NCBI GenBank assembly: GCA_964427735.1 | Contig: CAYRUS010000001.1 | Coordinates: 226,173 to 290,172, forward strand | Origin: an uncultured Gammaproteobacteria bacterium | GTDB taxonomy: Bacteria; Patescibacteriota; Microgenomatia; UBA8517 | Length of the DNA stretch: 64,000 nt | Direction: 5' to 3' | Part shown: positions 32,964 through 57,010 of the stretch, in pieces | Position numbering within the stretch: the first letter of the stretch is position 1 | Layout: each line of letters starts with the position of its first letter | Program-made: the position numbers and the translations under genes | Notes under the pieces: generated by a model | The model's input: only the letters and a program-made list of their open reading frames with translations | Database searches by the model: none | Told to the model about the DNA's origin: nothing

Positions 32964-33482
32964 TCACCTACTTAAATCTATATTCCTCTGCACAAAGGGA
33001 GAAAAATAACCCTTGTATTTTTCCTGAAGTTCAGGTCTTTTCCAATCGTGATTAGTAACTTCTCTCCTACAATTTGCACTTTCACAAGTACATTCAAACA
33101 AAATTCTTTTTTCTGTCTTTTGTGAACAAGTCATCACATAATCAAATGTTATTTCTTCACCAGACTTAATATCTCTCATAGCCACTAGCATTATTTGTCC
33201 AAAAATACCAGCATTTGGTTCACAAGAATGATTAAACCAATCAGCATCATCTGTTTCAGAAACATCTTTTGGTCCTATGAACATATCTTCGTCAATTCCA
33301 AGAGCAAGATATCTAACACTTTCTGGCAACATGTCTCTTTCACTTCTTTCCATAATATGACCGCCAAATACAGCTATTAGTTCGTCCTTTTTGATATCTT
33401 CTTTTGCAAACACACCAGTACCATGAGATTCTGAGGTTCTTGGATCACACTTATTACTTAACCAGTTGTTTTTTAAGATCAT
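32964..33482 (-). CDS. SET-domain protein (putative lysine methyltransferase) with a Cys-rich post-SET region
   Basis: GTGVFAKEDIKKDELI...NHSCEPN...GEEITFDY are the SET motifs. CTCESANC follows as a post-SET cysteine cluster. Confidence 0.75.
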   Translation of the reverse strand: MILKNNWLSNKCDPRTSESHGTGVFAKEDIKKDELIAVFGGHIMERSERDMLPESVRYLALGIDEDMFIGPKDVSETDDADWFNHSCEPNAGIFGQIMLVAMRDIKSGEEITFDYVMTCSQKTEKRILFECTCESANCRREVTNHDWKRPELQEKYKGYFSPFVQRNIDLSR

Positions 33483-33486
33483 ACTT

Positions 33487-34044
33487 TTACTTTCTTTTTG
33501 CTACAACAATAAGCCGCATACTATCATTAAAACCAGTGCAGGTATATAAAGTTAAAGTCTCATCTTCTGTGGGAGCAATAACTTCTAATTCATTTGGGTA
33601 AACTTCTTTAATCTCTTGGACTTCATAGTCAAACCAATCATCATCAGTCATAATATAAATTTCTGTTCCAAGCTGTACTTCCCTTAAAGGTAAAAAAAGT
33701 CCCTCCCTAGCGTGGGCAAAGACCACTTGATTACCCACTTCTCCAGGATAACCTGAACCTTCTCCCCAACCCGCAGAATCAGAAAACACCTCCCAATATC
33801 CATTAACAATTCTAGATCTTTTAATATCTAAGTTGACACCTAAATTAGGAATAACAACTTTGATAGGAGATTTTTTCTCCTCATCAATTTCCATTTCAAA
33901 TCCAGACACCTCAACTGGTTCTTCTTTAAAAGTGTATTCAGCAGAGACATCTGTTGTACTTTCTGGAAAATGACCTAAAAATAATATTCCGCCTAAAACA
34001 AGAAGAGCAATCCCAAAACCGATCTTTCCCCATTTCATAGGCAT
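33487..34044 (-). CDS. sortase family transpeptidase
   Basis: N-terminal TM anchor, His in VVFAHAREG, catalytic Cys in TLYTCTG (the TLxTC motif), and a downstream Arg (RLIVVAKRK). Confidence 0.75.
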   Translation of the reverse strand: MPMKWGKIGFGIALLVLGGILFLGHFPESTTDVSAEYTFKEEPVEVSGFEMEIDEEKKSPIKVVIPNLGVNLDIKRSRIVNGYWEVFSDSAGWGEGSGYPGEVGNQVVFAHAREGLFLPLREVQLGTEIYIMTDDDWFDYEVQEIKEVYPNELEVIAPTEDETLTLYTCTGFNDSMRLIVVAKRK

Positions 34045-34082: not shown

Positions 34083-35255
34083 TTATGCAGGAAGTTCTTC
34101 CTCTGCAAAAGTTTTACCAATTACAGTAAGACCTAATGTAAGGAAAAGTAGCCCTGCCCAAAAAATCAAAGGGTTATCAGTAGGAACACCACTTGTAGGA
34201 GATAAACCTAAAACTTCACCAACTTTTTTAGAAACATCTGCTGCCGCAATAATCAATCCTCCTCCTGGTTTGTCTTCTTCTTCGCCATTTCCATTTTCCC
34301 CTCCGTTACCAGGGTTTTCTTCTCTTGGTTTTTCTGGCTCACCATCACCAGGAACAACTACCTTACAACAAGGAACCAGTACATTGCCAAAATTTATTTT
34401 TTCGTTTTTAATCAAGAAATTAAAATCAATATCACCTGTAGCAATACTTACATCACCAATATTATTTTTGGCTATATTTTTACCTGTATTTAGACTCCAA
34501 TTAGCATTATTATAAATATCTGCATTGAAATCAGTATTTATGTTGAATAAGTCTATATGTGTTAGAGTTACATGATTGACAGAATATGCCCCGTTCCCAT
34601 TAATAACTATATTATTTGACGAGCTATTTTTGGCTACTTCTATATCTGAAGTATTAATTCTTTTGTTGACTACTGCACCGTAAACTTTTATATTTCCTGT
34701 TTTAATGTTTACATCTCCATTGTTTCCAGATACTTTATTGTAACCTGTATTAGCATTACCATTTATGTTATTTGTAATGTTTGCATTTTGAGATACATTA
34801 ACATCAGTTACATTCTTTTTATCTGAATTAACAGCATTGTGAGAATTACTACCATTATTTGATACATTTATAGATGAACCCTTGTCTGTACAGCACTCTT
34901 CCTTTACGGTTGAGTGGTTGGCCTCGTTAACAACTTCAATATTTTGACTGGAATCACCTGTTACAATTGTAGATTCACCATTTGTTGTATTGTTGATTTC
35001 ATTTCCACCTGTGTTTGTTGTTGTAGAGATATTGTTTTCAATGTCTACTGAATTTGATTGCTCAACCGTAGTTGATGATCCAGAAGTAACATTGACTTCG
35101 TTACTGGATCCACTGCCATTATCTGAAATTACTATTTCTTCTGCCATTGCAATCACGCTTGGCTCTGGAGAGACGAAAATAAATGTTCCAGATACAATAA
35201 CACTTGCTATAAGTAAATGAGCTAATATTTGTTTTGCAAAATCTTTAATGAACAT
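34083..35255 (-). CDS. secreted Asn/Thr/Gly-rich repeat surface protein (paralog A) with C-terminal TM tail
   Basis: Signal peptide, repeated N-x-N-x-x-TG-x-N/TGD motifs, CC dipeptides, and a C-terminus of ...EVLGLSPTSGVPTDNPLIFWAGLLFLTLGLTVIGKTFAEEELPA (LSPTSG plus hydrophobic tail). Confidence 0.6.
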   Translation of the reverse strand: MFIKDFAKQILAHLLIASVIVSGTFIFVSPEPSVIAMAEEIVISDNGSGSSNEVNVTSGSSTTVEQSNSVDIENNISTTTNTGGNEINNTTNGESTIVTGDSSQNIEVVNEANHSTVKEECCTDKGSSINVSNNGSNSHNAVNSDKKNVTDVNVSQNANITNNINGNANTGYNKVSGNNGDVNIKTGNIKVYGAVVNKRINTSDIEVAKNSSSNNIVINGNGAYSVNHVTLTHIDLFNINTDFNADIYNNANWSLNTGKNIAKNNIGDVSIATGDIDFNFLIKNEKINFGNVLVPCCKVVVPGDGEPEKPREENPGNGGENGNGEEEDKPGGGLIIAAADVSKKVGEVLGLSPTSGVPTDNPLIFWAGLLFLTLGLTVIGKTFAEEELPA

Positions 35256-35264
35256 ATTAATTAT

Positions 35265-37397
35265 TTAAGACTTAACTCCAACTAGGACTTTTTTGAGTTT
35301 ATCCAGTCCATAATATGCTCCTGCGAGGACTATAAATGTAAAAGGTAAAGCAAGGTTAATAGTTACCTTCTTTTTATCGCTTTGTGTACCTAAGACAGAA
35401 GGTTTTGAATCACTCTCACCTGCTAGAGCTAATTTATCTCCAGGATCATTATCAACATTTAGATTGCTAACTGCTGATAAATAATTTTTCTCAGATTTTT
35501 TATTGTTGGTATCATCAGTAGATAGAGTATTTATAACTGCAAGGTAATCTCCTTCTGCATCCAAAGAAACACTTGTATCATTTACAAAACTGCTTTGTGA
35601 TTCTGTATGAGAATTTGATGTATTGCCTCCTATTGCTTTATCAGTTGAATTATTACCTTTATCTGAATTATTATTTGCTTCCCCTTGTACAAAATCACCA
35701 ATCCAACTTCCGAAGACGTTAATTACATTTACGAATAGTCTTCCCCCTCCAGTAATGTTTGTATTTACAAAATTAACAATGTTAGCAACAATGTTCGCAT
35801 CACCTGTTTTTATTGTACTGTTCCCGCCTGTATTATAGTTTGCATCATTTCCGCCTGTGTTTGCAGATAACTGAAGGTTATTTCCGACATTGGCATTATT
35901 TACTTGGGTAATGTAGTTGTTATTTTCAATGTTAGCCTCACCTGTATTTGTACTACCTGCACCGTTACCAGAGTTTACTAACTTGACGTCTCCGCTTTCT
36001 GATACATCAAACTCTAAGTCTTCTGAACTTGCAACAGAACCGTCAAAGCCCATTATTTTACCAATCCATTTTCCGGCTTCATTTACTAGTACTAAAAACC
36101 AATCTCCTGAGACAAAATTCATATTTCCAAAGTTAACTACGCTAGCTTCAACATTTGTGTCTCCTGTCACTACAGTACTGTTTCCGCCTGTATTAAAACT
36201 TGCATTATTGTTCCCTGTAGTTGCATCAATTACCAATGTATTGTCAATATCAGCATTATTAAACTGAGTTATATTGTTGTTATTTTCTATATTAGCCTCA
36301 GTTGTATTATCAGAATTTGTACCGTTTCCTGTATTTTTAACTGTGGTGTCTGCAGTACAGCACATTGATGATGGGAATATTATATTACCGATCAAATCAC
36401 CAAATACATTAACCACTGCATAAATAACCCCGCCTTCTACATTAGTGTTTGTAAAGTTAAGCACATTTGCTGCCACATTTGCGTCACCTGTAATAATTAC
36501 ATTATCTCCTCCTGTATTAAAGCTTGTGTCGTTGTATCCAGAGTTTGCCGTAAGAACCATTGTGTTATTTAGGTTTGCATTATTTACTTGAGTTGTATCA
36601 TTGTTATTTGTAACCTGGACACTTCCCGTGTTTTCGCTGTTTGCTCCGTTTCCTTCATTTGAAATATCAACTGTTCCCACACATCCGTACACACATGTGC
36701 CTTTTGAAAAATCTAACACATAATCACCTGATTGATTGTCCATAATATTAAATTCATAAACACTAACTCCTGCTAGATTTGAATTCAAAAAGTTAATTAT
36801 TGTTCCTGTGGAATTTGCATTACCAGTTACAATTACATTGTCTCCCCCTGTATTAAAGCTAGCAGAATTACCACCTGTAGAAGTGGAGATATCCATATTG
36901 TTGTTCACATCTGCATTATTTGTTTGAGTTGTATTTGAGTCATTAACAACATTGACAGAACCATTATTTTCGCTGTTTGCTCCGTTAGCTTCATTAGCAA
37001 CAGATACACTTGGACCGCTTGTTGTTGTAGCTACACCAGTACCTCCACTAGCATTCTGATTGGCAATATTAATGAGTGATCCGTTTGCATTTGCATCTGA
37101 TGTATTTATAGATGAATCTCCCTGCTGTCCGTTTTGAGATTCCCCACCAGATGAGACAGTTGGTTTACTTTCTGATGAAGGTAGTGGCGATTCTGGTGTT
37201 GAGTTGTCAGAATTGTTGTTATTGTGCACAGGAGGCGGAGTTGGTGTAGATGGTGGTGTTGGTTTTGGCGGTGCTGTTGGTGTTGGTGGTGGTGTTGAAT
37301 TTGTTTGAGCCATAACACTACCCATAGGTGAAGTAGCAACAAGCATCGCTACTGTTACTATAACTGCTATCTGTTTTTTGTAATTTACTTTTATCAT
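35265..37397 (-). CDS. secreted repeat surface protein (paralog B), 710 aa, with Pro/Thr linker and four ~80-aa repeats
   Basis: Signal peptide, then a PPTPTAPPKPTPPSTPTPPP linker, then four repeats of pattern NxGNGxxSxN...TQxNNAxxxN...TGxNxAxFNTGG...TGDANV...NFxNxN. C-terminal hydrophobic segment plus KKVLVGVKS. Confidence 0.65.
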   Translation of the reverse strand: MIKVNYKKQIAVIVTVAMLVATSPMGSVMAQTNSTPPPTPTAPPKPTPPSTPTPPPVHNNNNSDNSTPESPLPSSESKPTVSSGGESQNGQQGDSSINTSDANANGSLINIANQNASGGTGVATTTSGPSVSVANEANGANSENNGSVNVVNDSNTTQTNNADVNNNMDISTSTGGNSASFNTGGDNVIVTGNANSTGTIINFLNSNLAGVSVYEFNIMDNQSGDYVLDFSKGTCVYGCVGTVDISNEGNGANSENTGSVQVTNNNDTTQVNNANLNNTMVLTANSGYNDTSFNTGGDNVIITGDANVAANVLNFTNTNVEGGVIYAVVNVFGDLIGNIIFPSSMCCTADTTVKNTGNGTNSDNTTEANIENNNNITQFNNADIDNTLVIDATTGNNNASFNTGGNSTVVTGDTNVEASVVNFGNMNFVSGDWFLVLVNEAGKWIGKIMGFDGSVASSEDLEFDVSESGDVKLVNSGNGAGSTNTGEANIENNNYITQVNNANVGNNLQLSANTGGNDANYNTGGNSTIKTGDANIVANIVNFVNTNITGGGRLFVNVINVFGSWIGDFVQGEANNNSDKGNNSTDKAIGGNTSNSHTESQSSFVNDTSVSLDAEGDYLAVINTLSTDDTNNKKSEKNYLSAVSNLNVDNDPGDKLALAGESDSKPSVLGTQSDKKKVTINLALPFTFIVLAGAYYGLDKLKKVLVGVKS

Positions 37398-37458
37398 TTT
37401 ATTAATTTTTTATAATCTTATTTTTTTATTTTTTCTTTTAAATTTTTGTTTTGGTTAA

Positions 37459-37499
37459 GTAGGGGTATCCACCGAAGTGCGGGTAGACAATCACCCTAC
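37459..37499 (-). other. stable stem-loop with UUCG tetraloop (minus-strand RNA) between surface-protein paralogs C and B
   Basis: GTAGGG...CCCTAC outer stem enclosing CAC-TTCG-GTG on the minus strand. It sits 17 nt after the stop of 37516..38778 and is not followed by a U-tract. Confidence 0.35.
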
Positions 37500-37515
37500 T
37501 GTTCCAAAACTTCCA

Positions 37516-38778
37516 TTACTTTGACAAACCGATCATTCCCAAAAAACCACTGAAATCAAAGTCCCATTCAAATTCCATATCAGAATCAAATGGCCATTCA
37601 AAGTCTGGGAAATCAAAGCCGCCAATTACGTTACTGTTAGCAGTATTTTCTACTGTAGCACTAACGTTAGCATCACTAGTAATGATTGCTGGGTCTGATC
37701 CATCTACATCACCAGTATTTGAATTTGCATCATTTTTACCGGTACTTGCATCAAGATCTTCCAGATCATTGTCTAGATCTGCATCATTATCTTGGTCGTA
37801 AGCGATAAGACTATCAAGTCTTAGGTCAATTAAGTTTGAACCACCTAATCTTCCGTCATCAGCTCCGTTACCAGAAATTTTTGCAAGAATATCCCAACCG
37901 CATCCGCAGTCGATATTTGCACTGTTAAAGTTAACAGCGTTCAAAACGTTTGCTGTTACATCAGCTGCACCTGTTTGTATAACAACTTCTCCTCCAGTAT
38001 TGAAGTTTGCATCGTTATAACCTGTTGCAGCATCAACATCAACATCATTGTCGACATCTGCATCGTTATCTTGATCAATGCTGTTTTCTTTATCCAGTCT
38101 TGCGTCAATATCATTCCAAGAACCTGCTCCGTTTCCTAAGATTCGGAAGCTTGCTGTTGGATTATCATCGCCGTTTCCGCCAATTCTTGCAAAGTTGCTA
38201 TTAGCTAAAGTTGCTAAAGTAACTCCTACAGTAGAATCACCGGTAAGCACAACAACACTGTCATTTCCATCGAAACTTCCAGTGTTAAGGTTGGCATTAT
38301 TGCCTCCTGTTTTAGCTTTTACATCGACATCATTGTCGACATCGGCGTCGTTGTCTTGATCAATGCTGTGTAAAACATCAGATCTCAAATCAACATAGTT
38401 TTGAGAATCTGCACCGTTGCCCTCAATAAGGACATCAGCGTCTTGACCTTCACAGCATTCTACATCAGCAACATTTGTGTTAACTGAGTTAACAATTCCA
38501 ACATTGACATCTGCATTACCAGTAAGAACACCTACCTCACCGCCAGTATTGTATTTGGCGTTGTTATTTCCTGTGGAAGCATCAACGTCTACATCATTGT
38601 CGATATCGGCATCATTGTTTTGGTTTACAGTTGTCTCTGTGGAGTAGTTTACGCTTGCATCATTTACGCTACCTACACCATTTCCAGTTATTTGAACTGT
38701 TGTGGCACCTAGTACCGGAAGTACAGCATAAGCCATTAACCCTGTTGCTGCTGCTGCTGAAACTAATTTTTTATACAT
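37516..38778 (-). CDS. secreted repeat surface protein (paralog C), Asp/Asn-rich repeats, first gene of array
   Basis: Signal peptide. About five repeats of IDQDNDADVDNDVDV-x-A-x-TG-x-N-x-AN-x-NTG...TGxAxV with conserved Cys pairs (ECCEG, CGCG). Strong SD AGGGGGTGA sits 8 nt upstream of the ATG. Confidence 0.65.
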   Translation of the reverse strand: MYKKLVSAAAATGLMAYAVLPVLGATTVQITGNGVGSVNDASVNYSTETTVNQNNDADIDNDVDVDASTGNNNAKYNTGGEVGVLTGNADVNVGIVNSVNTNVADVECCEGQDADVLIEGNGADSQNYVDLRSDVLHSIDQDNDADVDNDVDVKAKTGGNNANLNTGSFDGNDSVVVLTGDSTVGVTLATLANSNFARIGGNGDDNPTASFRILGNGAGSWNDIDARLDKENSIDQDNDADVDNDVDVDAATGYNDANFNTGGEVVIQTGAADVTANVLNAVNFNSANIDCGCGWDILAKISGNGADDGRLGGSNLIDLRLDSLIAYDQDNDADLDNDLEDLDASTGKNDANSNTGDVDGSDPAIITSDANVSATVENTANSNVIGGFDFPDFEWPFDSDMEFEWDFDFSGFLGMIGLSK

Positions 38779-38789
38779 TATTTATATAT

Positions 38790-38925
38790 TCACCCCCTCT
38801 CGTCGTATATTTCTCCGAATTAATTCGGAGGCACTTCTAAACCGTTTCTAAAAAGAAACGGAGGCATCCCAATCCAAATTTAACTTTAGATTGGAAGGCC
38901 TCCGTTTGCGGTCAGCTTTCCGGTT
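38790..38925 (-). promoter_or_regulatory. structured 5' leader of the surface-protein array with several perfect palindromes
   Basis: CTCCGAATTAATTCGGAG (38813-38830), CCGTTTCTAAAAAGAAACGG (38842-38861), CCAATC...GATTGG (about 38869-38894), and recurring GCCTCCG/CGGAGGC elements. Confidence 0.4.
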
Positions 38926-39015: not shown

Positions 39016-39021
39016 TGTCAA
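39016..39021 (-). promoter_or_regulatory. candidate -35 (TTGACA on minus strand) of a promoter driving the surface-protein leader
   Basis: TTGACA on the minus strand, with AT-rich TATA-like sequence 15-19 nt downstream. This would give a roughly 200-nt leader. Confidence 0.25.
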
Positions 39022-39091: not shown

Positions 39092-39250
39092 TTATTTGGT
39101 GCTGTTAGTCTTTTTAATCCTCCTTACGGTAATTTGAGTAACAGCACCATCTTGGATATACAACTCAACGCTTCCATAACGACCGACGTTTTTTATAGCG
39201 TCTTTTATCTCTGCTATAAGTTGTCTCGTTATTTTTTGACTTGAGTACAT
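39092..39250 (-). CDS. small protein (52 aa), YezD/DUF2292-like
   Basis: Not in the ORF track because it is short. MYSSQKITRQLIAEIKDAIKNVGRYGSVELYIQDGAVTQITVRRIKKTNSTK. The GSVEL.IQDG.V.QI pattern recalls the YezD family. It starts 9 nt after the stop of the upstream gene. Confidence 0.4.
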   Translation of the reverse strand: MYSSQKITRQLIAEIKDAIKNVGRYGSVELYIQDGAVTQITVRRIKKTNSTK

Positions 39251-39259
39251 AAATTTTCT

Positions 39260-40045
39260 TTACTTACTTAAATTTAATGGCACATCTTGTTTCTCACCGT
39301 TAATTTCGCCAACTTTAAGTACAAATTCAGTGTCATCTTTATTTACAGAAAAACCTACTCTTGTATGTTTTGTGGAGATTGCCAATATCTGGACTGGGTC
39401 ATTGTGCATTTCTGGAGCTAATTGCTCATCTTCTCTACCTTCTGCAACAAGCCTTACAAAATCTTTTGTATTCATTTCAATTGCCTGATCTAACTCGTTG
39501 GTAATTTTTAAATTAATAACTAAGAATATTTTTCCTTCAGTCGCATATGCTTGTTGACCTTGTACTAGTACTGTGTCTCTAAGTTGTGCTTTTTCAAGTT
39601 CAAATTTCACACTCGATATTTCATTACCCTCTTCATCTTTTAAAGGGAAGCTAAATTCGCGGTTAATTTCTTGTTCTGCAATAATTCCTTTTATTGAAGT
39701 ATTTTTACCTGCAACCTCTGTATTTTTAGTATCATCACCATTAAAGTAGGAAATAAAACCAAAAACTACAATAAGAACACAAATCCCCAACAAAACATAA
39801 AAGTATTTTCTTTTTGATTTTTTATTTACTGGCATGTCATTCTCTGTTCTATATGATCTGTTTCTTCTTATATTACCAATGTTAAATAATTTTCTTCTTG
39901 AATTCATAAACATATTTATAAGTGTATTTTTTATGGTCAACCCACTAAAGCCAGAGCTTATGATCCCCTCACCGACATATCCCAAATTTATTCTATTATG
40001 AAGTCCTGCGAACTTAGAGGCGGTTGATCTTGATACGTCTGCCAT
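39260..40045 (-). CDS. membrane-anchored hypothetical protein (DUF4352-like extracytoplasmic domain?)
   Basis: The basic N-terminus and single TM helix (YFYVLLGICVLIVVFGFISYF) are followed by a beta-rich domain. The true start may be an internal ATG at 39913 or 39835. Confidence 0.45.
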   Translation of the reverse strand: MADVSRSTASKFAGLHNRINLGYVGEGIISSGFSGLTIKNTLINMFMNSRRKLFNIGNIRRNRSYRTENDMPVNKKSKRKYFYVLLGICVLIVVFGFISYFNGDDTKNTEVAGKNTSIKGIIAEQEINREFSFPLKDEEGNEISSVKFELEKAQLRDTVLVQGQQAYATEGKIFLVINLKITNELDQAIEMNTKDFVRLVAEGREDEQLAPEMHNDPVQILAISTKHTRVGFSVNKDDTEFVLKVGEINGEKQDVPLNLSK

Positions 40046-55659: not shown

Positions 55660-55932
55660 TTAAAGTTTCTTCATCACTTTCATTACTTCATCAATTACTT
55701 CTATATCATTACCGGCTTTTATGGAGTTAGCCACGCAAGACTCCATATGATTTTTAAGAATTAGATGATCAGCCTTTTTCAAAGCAGATTGTACAGCCAA
55801 AGATTGGTGTACAACGTCAATGCAATATTCACCAGTTTCTAGCATCTTGATTACTTTCTCTAAATGACCTTTTGCGATCTTTAATCTATGCATTGCCTTC
55901 TTTTGATTTAGTTCAAATTTTCTATTGTCCAT
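55660..55932 (-). CDS. csoR: CsoR/RcnR-family metal-sensing transcriptional repressor
   Basis: 90 aa. YCIDVVHQSLAVQSAL with the conserved Cys, plus the H...C pair of the CsoR family. Confidence 0.75.
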   Translation of the reverse strand: MDNRKFELNQKKAMHRLKIAKGHLEKVIKMLETGEYCIDVVHQSLAVQSALKKADHLILKNHMESCVANSIKAGNDIEVIDEVMKVMKKL

Positions 55933-56014
55933 TATTCCTATTGACTTATCCCCTAGGGGGGGATATATAATTCTATTATCGACTATTGCTATTTGTCAAG
56001 TTAAAATACAAAAA

Positions 56015-57010
56015 ATGAATACAGTACTCTTAGCACTCGTGACTGGTCTCTTTACAGGCGGCATTTCCTGTTTTGCAATACAGGGCGGACTGTTAGCTAC
56101 ATCGGTGGCAAATCAACAAAAAGACACACAAAAACTCTCAATTATATTTTTCCTTATAAGCAAACTGATAGCATATACCATTTTAGGCTTTATTCTTGGT
56201 ACTATTGGTTCTTCACTTGTAATCACTCCAAAAACTCAAGGTGTATTACAAATATTTGCAGGGATAGTAATGCTAATTGCTGCAGCAAGAATTATTGATT
56301 TGCATCCTGTCTTTAGAAAATTTGTTATCACTCCGCCTAAATCTCTATACCGTCTAGTTAGGAAAAGTTCAAAGATGGATAGCTTTTTTGCTCCATCTAT
56401 TCTTGGATTTTCAACGGTTCTTATTCCATGCGGCATAACGCAAAGCATGATGCTTTTAGCAATTGCCGCAGGAAACGGATTTTGGGGAGCTTTAATAATG
56501 GCATCATTTACTATTGGTACTTCACCACTATTCTTTACATTGGGAATGGCATCAAAAAAGATGCTTGACAATAAAAAGCTCTCAATACTTGCTGCACTAA
56601 TTATTTTTTATCTTGGAATTTCTTCACTAAATACAGGTCAAATTTTGCGCGGTTCCAATCATACTTTACAAAATTACTGGCTTGCTGCCACTGGAAATCT
56701 TGAACCAGAACAAGATGTAGGAAAAGTTGCCGGTGTTAAAGATGGAAAACAAGAGGCAACAATTGATGTTATAACCGGCGGCTATAAATCAGAAAGTACA
56801 ACTTTAAAAGCAGGTATTCCGGTTAAATTAACATTGAGTACTAATAACACTAGGGGATGTTCCAGAGCATTTACCATTCCTGAATACAATATTATGGAAG
56901 TACTGCCGGAAACAGGTGAAAAAATTGTTGAATTTACACCAACCAAACAAGGTAGGCTTGTTTATACATGTAGTATGGGAATGTATACTGGCTATTTTGA
57001 CGTAATATAA
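56015..57010 (+). CDS. polytopic membrane protein with C-terminal cupredoxin-like domain
   Basis: The start is placed at ATG 56015 (MNTVLLALVTG) to avoid overlapping divergent csoR. 6-7 TM helices with PCG within a TM segment. The C-terminal about 110 aa is paralogous to 55289..55657 (GCSRAF...YTCSMGMYTG). Confidence 0.5.
   Translation: MNTVLLALVTGLFTGGISCFAIQGGLLATSVANQQKDTQKLSIIFFLISKLIAYTILGFILGTIGSSLVITPKTQGVLQIFAGIVMLIAAARIIDLHPVFRKFVITPPKSLYRLVRKSSKMDSFFAPSILGFSTVLIPCGITQSMMLLAIAAGNGFWGALIMASFTIGTSPLFFTLGMASKKMLDNKKLSILAALIIFYLGISSLNTGQILRGSNHTLQNYWLAATGNLEPEQDVGKVAGVKDGKQEATIDVITGGYKSESTTLKAGIPVKLTLSTNNTRGCSRAFTIPEYNIMEVLPETGEKIVEFTPTKQGRLVYTCSMGMYTGYFDVI

Follow-up and report, generated by a model that had tools for sequence, protein, structure and literature searches.

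The candidate phyla radiation (CPR) makes up a large share of bacterial diversity, and its envelope and host-contact proteins are mostly unassigned; the only CPR surface structures assigned in the literature that we found are type IV pili and Pam pili. Here we describe a locus on the minus strand of a 64,000-nt stretch of DNA (hereafter the window; positions 226,173 to 290,172 of contig CAYRUS010000001.1, assembly GCA_964427735.1) that encodes three tandem repeat proteins, C, B and A, followed by a sortase. By analogy, the assembly logic that we propose for it would be closest to that of the long versus short chaplins with their class E sortases and to that of CsgB/CsgA in curli. The chaplins of Streptomyces (ChpA-C versus ChpD-H; SrtE1/E2, LAXTG; PMC5148588) resemble the window proteins in being paralogues with a common repeat domain, some sortase-anchored and others secreted without an anchor, in having a dedicated sortase, and in a sorting signal that departs from LPXTG at P3, where chaplins carry Ala and the proteins described here Ser, Gly or Ala. 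They differ in that there is no chaplin domain here, NCBIfam does not place the sortase in class E (47 bits versus 160), P1' is often Ser, a third, membrane-anchored paralogue (B) is present, and the units are about 88 rather than about 40 amino acids (aa) long. Class E sortases read LAXTG, and ~90% of known sorting signals have Pro at P3 (PMC5148588); LAXTG overlaps the motif found here, L-[SGA]-x-T-[SG], in some loci only.

The curli (CsgA/CsgB) and Fap (FapC/FapB) systems are alike in their imperfect tandem repeats with conserved Asn, Gln, Gly and Ala and in combining a major subunit with one or more paralogous, cell-associated subunits, and they provided the best, non-significant, structural matches to our models. 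They differ in that no sequence homology was detected, the repeat described here is about four times longer and contains conserved cysteine pairs, and the organism lacks an outer membrane, anchoring being instead by sortase and transmembrane helix; no CsgG/FapF-type channel or CsgE/F-type accessory gene was recognized among the genes adjoining the locus. The Pam pili (Troman et al. 2026, bioRxiv 10.64898/2026.03.03.709456), reported in Saccharimonadia and Microgenomatia, are similar as CPR-specific secreted proteins with paired cysteines encoded in an operon of paralogues. Pam pilins are Ig-like, assemble by donor-strand exchange and use PapD-like chaperones, with sortase named only as a separate system (bioRxiv 10.64898/2026.03.03.709456), whereas the proteins considered here are, by description, repeat- or solenoid-like and accompanied by a sortase, and the Pfam scan found no chaperone-like gene among the locus genes. 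Canonical LPXTG sorting (class A/D) has in common with this locus the signal peptide, pentapeptide, hydrophobic segment, tail and sortase His/Cys/Arg residues, and most orthologous loci carry a true LPXTG, but the clade to which the window belongs has Ser, Gly or Ala at P3 and Ser or Gly at P1', the tail of the window A protein is acidic, and its divergent sortase has a 9-residue deletion.

We collected 73 related loci, scanning their open reading frames (ORFs) with a profile of the repeat unit and with the window sortase, and all of them come from Microgenomatia-type CPR genomes (Gottesman-, Levy-, Woese-, Roizman-, Ames-, Davies- and Chisholmbacteria). Of the 60 loci in which both C and B are present, 50 keep the order C-B-A-sortase, with typical sizes of about 420 aa (4 units) for C, about 740 aa (4 units) for B and about 385 aa (3 units) for A, the last of which is reduced to a ~195-aa one-unit form in 11 loci. 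Judged by this comparison, the locus is conserved across Microgenomatia, which are ultra-small CPR bacteria, unannotated and made up of seven parts, and it is a near-universal candidate for a surface structure of the class. Our preferred reading, which we hold tentatively and which falls just short of being probable, is of a conserved Microgenomatia surface locus in which A and B would be anchored bases and abundant C would assemble on them as a fiber or coat. The protein features on which this reading draws are the following:

37516..38778, minus strand: protein C, 420 aa; signal peptide, 4 repeat units, CC and CGC pairs, acidic/aromatic C-terminal tail, without anchor; proposed major subunit.
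35265..37397, minus strand: protein B, 710 aa; a signal peptide and a Pro/Thr-rich linker lead into the half unit and 4 full units, each with its hydrophobic insert, and then come a Ser/Asn-rich spacer, the VLG motif and, at the C-terminus, a transmembrane anchor.
About 35301..35357, minus strand: transmembrane anchor of B, from comparison of C-termini.
34083..35255, minus strand: protein A, 390 aa; a signal peptide and 3 units, with two CC pairs, then a Pro/Gly/Glu linker, LSPTSG, a transmembrane helix and a short tail; proposed sortase substrate.
34188..34205, minus strand: LSPTSG of A, starting at A351.
34101..34172, minus strand: transmembrane helix of A (AlphaFold helix A362-385).
33487..34044, minus strand: sortase, 185 aa (Pfam Sortase, E = 2.7e-23), of the c2 clade of Microgenomatia.

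A preliminary description of this DNA, made from the sequence alone, had proposed three tandem secreted repeat paralogues with signal peptides, and the ORFs at these coordinates bear this out. The paralogy is significant by BLASTP (E = 1e-14 for A-C, 1e-19 for B-C and 1.6e-8 for A-B; ~30% identity), the start codon of A lies 9 nt past the stop codon of B, and each protein has a signal peptide recognizable by eye from a basic n-region, a hydrophobic core and an AXA-like site. There are eleven repeat units (4 in C, 3 in A, and 4 in B, where residues 81-119 form a further half unit near the N-terminus). They can be aligned in register, the N, G and T positions being invariant and identity to the first unit of C 31-51%, and the match among them is, judged by this alignment, far beyond chance. 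Their consensus is x-I-x-I-x-G-N-G-A-x-S-x-N-(13 residues)-Q-x-N-x-A-x-V-x-N-x-V-x-x-x-A-x-T-G-x-N-x-A-x-x-N-T-G-G-x-x-x-I-x-T-G-D-A-x-V-x-x-x-V-x-N-x-x-N-x-N. The units, which had been put at ~55-80 aa, are in fact longer: those of C and A measure 87-95 aa, and those of B, each followed by a ~25-aa hydrophobic insert, 106-120 aa. In both C and A the first unit begins directly past the predicted signal-peptide cleavage site, and the repeat array has no obvious cap at either end.

The recurring paired cysteines of the preliminary description were likewise found, together with two pairs missing from its list, and they are located at unit ends: residues 108-109 and 291/293 in C, 235/239 and 346-347 in B, and 121-122 and 296-297 in A. 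Conservation follows the families, with C109, C291 and C293 invariant in C, positions 296 and 297 invariant and 121 and 122 at least 90% conserved in A, and C235/C239 kept in 65 of 66 B orthologues, the second B pair being variable.

The ~88-residue repeat common to A, B and C is undescribed. Pfam and NCBIfam scans of C, B, A and eight longer relatives gave no match; C, B and A had no Pfam match even at E ≤ 0.1, curlin and chaplin domains included; and a C-family profile found no match among PDB sequences at E ≤ 1. A look-up of the clusters of the window proteins returned no names or accessions, and literature on CPR or Microgenomates with sortase, S-layer, metaproteomics or amyloid yielded no description of the repeat family. 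The family is large: a profile of the 11 window units retrieved 3,316 clusters at E ≤ 1e-3, of which 844 reach E ≤ 1e-30, from 1.84 billion representatives, in architectures of 3-10 units with or without a C-terminal transmembrane tail, and the same profile found no copy in the 64-kb window outside A, B and C. With ~3,300 clusters, the repeat would suit a new Pfam family and structure determination. Three seven-unit relatives (P0262, P0367 and P0371), about 940-1,040 aa long, combine Ala/Gly/Pro-rich ends with basic transmembrane tails; they look high-G+C in origin, so the repeat domain may reach beyond CPR (the window itself has a G+C content of 30-37%).

We ran AlphaFold2 with family alignments on C and A and searched both models against PDB with Foldseek. 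The model of C (predicted local distance difference test [pLDDT] 71.6, predicted template modeling score [pTM] 0.64) and that of A (pLDDT 75.8, pTM 0.55, with parts of units above 90) are ordered and all-β in the repeats, every unit having strands of about 6, 31-33, 3, 4 and 19 residues at equivalent positions and loops at the GNGxxS, NTGG, TGD and Cys sites. Foldseek gave no match to either model at E ≤ 1e-3. All listed matches were parallel β-helices or functional amyloids (FapC, CsgA), none significant; FapC came first for both models (E = 7e-3 and 1.1e-2) and CsgA was also listed, with probabilities of 0.16-0.21 and template modeling (TM) scores below 0.2, and there were no Ig-like folds among the PDB matches. 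Because of the invariant Asn/Gly/Thr ladder positions and the nature of these matches, parallel stacking of the units is the most likely arrangement, and a solenoid of stacked units is somewhat probable, perhaps with a single unit to each rung; the conserved cysteine pairs would probably staple the stacked rungs. Of the β-solenoid-like periodicity proposed earlier, the ordered, all-β character with five strands per unit thus stands in both models, while Foldseek support for the solenoid itself is non-significant.

These models also bear on whether the repeats are merely compositional, belonging to a low-complexity or disordered Asn/Asp-rich sequence. The composition is certainly skewed (N 13-17% across the proteins, D 15% in C), but conservation runs column by column over 53-66 orthologues with dozens of invariant residues, and AlphaFold places strands at equivalent positions of every unit, which makes this explanation extremely improbable; the disorder that would have told against the preliminary description is not what the models predict.

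Protein A has a candidate sorting signal. The preliminary description had seen no LPXTG in any of the three proteins, and none was overlooked: LP.TG is absent from the C-terminal 80 residues of C, B and A, and its sole match among the window ORFs (LPETG, in the ORF at 55925..57010) has no hydrophobic segment after it. Among 120 A homologues, 73 have LP.[TS]G (LPATG or LPVTG for the most part), behind which come a hydrophobic segment and a YLRFRSGxSP-like basic tail, and the closest relatives of the window A protein carry (I/L)-G-L-S-D-T-S-S where the others have LPXTG. The window protein reads EVLGLSPTSG, six residues ahead of the helix A362-385 (pLDDT 86-94), which fits the hydrophobic segment noted earlier near the ends of A and B, where a short tail follows. 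In the A-family alignment both motif types share an invariant T354 and an L351 conserved at 90% or more, and since these residues align with the T and L of LPXTG, LSPTSG is its positional homologue, a variant signal with Ser, Gly or Ala at P3 and Ser or Gly at P1' in the window clade.

The sortase varies together with this signal. Its catalytic residues (His in FAHAR, the sole Cys, 169, in YTCTG, and Arg in MRLIV) align with those of other sortases, its nearest solved structure is 4d70 (E = 1.8e-9), and it falls under every NCBIfam class cut-off, including those for class C (NF033745, 44.3 bits against a cut-off of 160) and class E (NF033747, 46.9 bits against 160). Sortases of clade c1 are paired with LPXTG in 38 of 38 assignable loci and those of clade c2, to which the window sortase belongs, with the variant motif in 13 of 13; compared with c1, c2 sortases have nine residues fewer after the catalytic His and TCSGF instead of TCTPxGT. 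When loci are ordered by how closely their C or B resembles that of the window, c2 members are scattered among c1, whereas ordering by sortase similarity places all twelve c2 loci on top, which suggests that sortase and signal travel together. Because LSPTSG aligns with the LPXTG of orthologues and motif and clade covary without exception, A is very probably a substrate of the adjacent sortase, linked to the wall via a non-canonical L-S-x-T-S/G signal, in line with the earlier surmise that the sortase may recognize such a signal. The pair of clades (LPXTG versus LSxTS) should be useful for specificity studies and protein ligation.

The position of a sortase gene amid secreted paralogues recalls Gram-positive pilus islands and invites comparison with a sortase-polymerized pilus whose subunits are joined via a pilin lysine. 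Such a pilus is very improbable here, since the sorting signal occurs in A only, with none in C or B, no conserved lysine exists in the A family and K300 is the one invariant lysine of C, the class C model gives the sortase 44 bits where its cut-off is 160, and neither Pfam nor Foldseek found Cna- or Ig-like domains. We rejected this candidate on the first two grounds in particular, C being without a sorting signal and the A family without a lysine that is invariant or 90% conserved.

Protein B appears to be held differently. No B orthologue contains LPXTG, even in loci whose sortase pairs with LPXTG, and all have in common an (I/V)-N-L-A-W start of the transmembrane segment (INLAL in the window) with a basic tail after it. 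Because LPXTG is absent and the transmembrane start is conserved, B would stay membrane-anchored through its C-terminal helix, and we rejected it as a substrate of the sortase. The preliminary description had suggested VLGTQSD as a possible sorting motif of B, and this suggestion fails on both grounds; moreover, VLG also precedes LPXTG in A orthologues and is therefore not the sortase site. The motif is itself of note: in both families, A and B, V-[LA]-G turns up 10-40 residues ahead of the C-terminal transmembrane segment, even beside LPXTG; in B it lies 20-40 residues ahead of the transmembrane start and takes the form SVLGTQSD in the window. From the comparison of C-termini, its location is:

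About 35346..35408, minus strand: V-[LA]-G region of B, residues ~664-684; the corresponding residues in A are ~345-350.

Protein C has neither a sorting signal nor a transmembrane segment. Its family ends in a conserved tail, PFDxPDxPxVDFSFNFAALWAFFGMS (...FEWDFDFSGFLGMIGLSK in the window), where AlphaFold confidence is low. The 367-aa repeat region (37603..38703) has a net charge of -57 with D-x-D-x-D faces; in all four units of C, Asp occupies alternate positions of the long strand (e.g., IDQDNDADVDNDVDVDA), and in the model, stacked C units would form a flat carboxylate array, with cation binding possible.

Gene C is also set apart by the signals around it, whose coordinates are as follows:

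38791..38797, minus strand: Shine-Dalgarno (SD) sequence GGGGGUG of C, read in the sequence as GAGAGGGGGUGA.
38831..38837, minus strand: leader motif GAAGUGC, complement of the 3' hairpin loop, present in 51 of 61 loci.
38850..38916, minus strand: 5' leader element GCUGACCGCAAACGGAGGC...GCCUCCGUUUCUUUUU, folding as a terminator-like hairpin with a U run after it.
37448..37510, minus strand: 3' hairpin directly past the stop codon of C (z = -4.46 in the window).
37473..37480, minus strand: loop GCACUUCG of the 3' hairpin, nearly invariant, of which 37474..37480 pairs with the leader motif.

The very strong SD sequence and long structured leader that had been noted for the first gene were both confirmed. 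In all of 61 loci a GGAGGUG-like site stands ahead of C, and no obvious SD lies ahead of B, A or the sortase gene in the window. The leader of C has a minimum free energy z score of -4.7, and 8-mers of its conserved element recur upstream of C in 41-57 of 70 loci; its sequence GCUGACCGCAAACGGAGGC...GCCUCCGUUUUUU is conserved across candidate phyla and folds as a terminator-like hairpin in which GGAGG, resembling an SD, is paired with CCUCC, while a downstream GAAACGG could alternatively pair with CCGUUUC. The element may be an attenuator or a 5' stabilizer. Rfam recognized no real family in the whole window at gathering thresholds or in the leader at E ≤ 5, and a promoter scan called no site upstream of C, where a TTGACA at 39021..39016 has no -10 hexamer at 16-18 nt.

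The 3' hairpin is conserved as a structure, reaching z < -2 in 61 of 62 loci, with a conserved outer stem (GUAGGGUG/CACCCUAC) and an inner stem that covaries, 9-19 sequences having changed on both sides of pairs. It is largely specific to this site, which accounts for 44 of 92 loose motif matches, the rest resembling chance; the window copy is followed by no U run and belongs to no Rfam family. Leader motif and loop lie 1.3 kb apart and occur together in 49 of 61 loci, where the longest complement between leader and loop averages 7.2 nt versus 4.8 ± 0.14 nt for shuffled leaders. Compensatory changes include a C:G to U:A replacement at one position in six distinct loci and matched changes in three loci (L005, L053 and L062). 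This pattern suggests 5'-3' pairing within the C mRNA, or pairing in trans; conserved long-range 5'-3' interactions of this kind are rare in bacterial mRNAs. Taken together, the sequence signals fit a very abundant, tightly controlled C transcript and a lower output of B, A and sortase, and the sole strong SD, the conserved structured leader and the conserved 3' hairpin agree with the initial proposal that C is an abundant component.

From these elements we propose the following course of assembly. All three proteins would be exported by Sec; A would be cut within L-S-x-T-S/G by its dedicated sortase and joined to the cell wall, and B would be held in the membrane by its C-terminal helix. C would be made in excess, because the strong ribosome-binding site and the mRNA-stabilizing structures are found only with C. 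The units would fold as stacked parallel β rungs, solenoid- or cross-β-like, as predicted from an alternating in/out pattern and the invariant Asn, Gly, Thr, Gln and Ala, and C could then dock on the open repeat ends of A and/or B and extend by rung-on-rung stacking into a fibril. A version of this proposal specific in every part, in which the main envelope fiber or coat of Microgenomatia is a new class of disulfide-stapled, wall-tethered cross-β polymer with a ~88-residue rung that by far exceeds those of curli or Fap, an L-S-x-T-S sortase and 5' leader-3' loop control, we consider unlikely to hold as a whole. Recombinant proteins, synthetic peptides and reporters would serve to study the system without cultivating the organism.

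Much of the same evidence can be read as describing an S-layer, in which C would form a two-dimensional lattice and the wall-linked A and membrane-linked B would be its anchors rather than nucleators of a fiber. S-layer genes typically have long stabilizing 5' leaders and very strong SDs, and Luef and colleagues are said to have reported in 2015 an S-layer on groundwater ultra-small bacteria. The expression and anchoring evidence applies here as it does to a fiber, the near-universal presence of the locus in the class would be in keeping with such a layer, and the acidic, regular surface of C suits a cation-bridged lattice. Two observations make us regard an S-layer as rather unlikely nevertheless: in none of the three proteins did Pfam or NCBIfam detect an SLH domain, a cell-wall-binding repeat or any further domain known to anchor S-layers, and a variable number of units (1-10) in an open-ended array suits linear stacking better than a fixed lattice unit.

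The three proteins might alternatively act independently, A and B as separately anchored adhesins or spacers and C as a released exoprotein, for example a cation- or host-binding factor. The highly acidic character of C, its conserved tail, which could be a cap or a receptor-binding element, and the presence of β-helical adhesins among the weak fold matches are all compatible with separate roles, but strict co-occurrence, fixed gene order and a common repeat over about 50 loci argue for one structure, and the expression signals are graded much as between a major subunit and minor ones, so that we think independent action quite unlikely.

Several points weigh against the fiber or coat that we prefer. 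Polymerization, abundance and wall linkage are inferred here from sequence and models, and the dense Asp faces of C would repel one another in a stack unless cations were bound. The Foldseek matches are non-significant (E ≥ 7e-3, probability ≤ 0.21, TM < 0.2) and the models of medium confidence; long antiparallel hairpins would yield an identical DSSP string, and AlphaFold may over-predict solenoids for repeats. On the side of anchoring, Ala is common at P1 in short A orthologues (LSAASG), an unusual residue there for a sortase signal, and the tail of the window A protein, KTFAEEELPA, is net acidic (one Lys, three Glu), unlike canonical signals and unlike the K/R-rich tails of its close relatives. 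The pairing of sortase clade and motif could also trace to a few ancestral events rather than to selected specificity.

Two further genes accompany the locus upstream of C and are candidates for a regulator, an RNA-binding protein or an assembly factor:

39260..40045, minus strand: U1, 261 aa; a single transmembrane segment is predicted, and the C-terminal domain weakly resembles DUF4352 (Pfam E = 0.0035, below cut-off).
39092..39250, minus strand: U2, 52 aa, a basic DUF2292 protein (PF10055 on record for an identical gene), directly upstream of the C leader.

In about 70 of 73 loci a U1 homologue is found on the strand of C, 0.7-1.9 kb upstream of it, and in about 67 of 73 a U2 homologue lies 0.3-0.8 kb upstream. 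At the other end, 32 loci have a convergent ~200-aa two-unit secreted paralogue, E, after the sortase (e.g., L010:13466-14059, minus strand; also L007, L020 and L036), with a CGC/CC motif between its units, of which often one is basic and one acidic. In the window, the place held by E in other loci, directly past the sortase, is taken by a SET-domain gene (32964..33482, minus strand; Pfam E = 3.9e-18), which is followed by an unannotated 232-aa ORF. Many metagenome-assembled genome records with the locus (L003, L005, L007 and others) are titled "uncultured Gammaproteobacteria bacterium" and one "Methylomirabilota"; these titles are probably wrong, or the contigs mis-binned.

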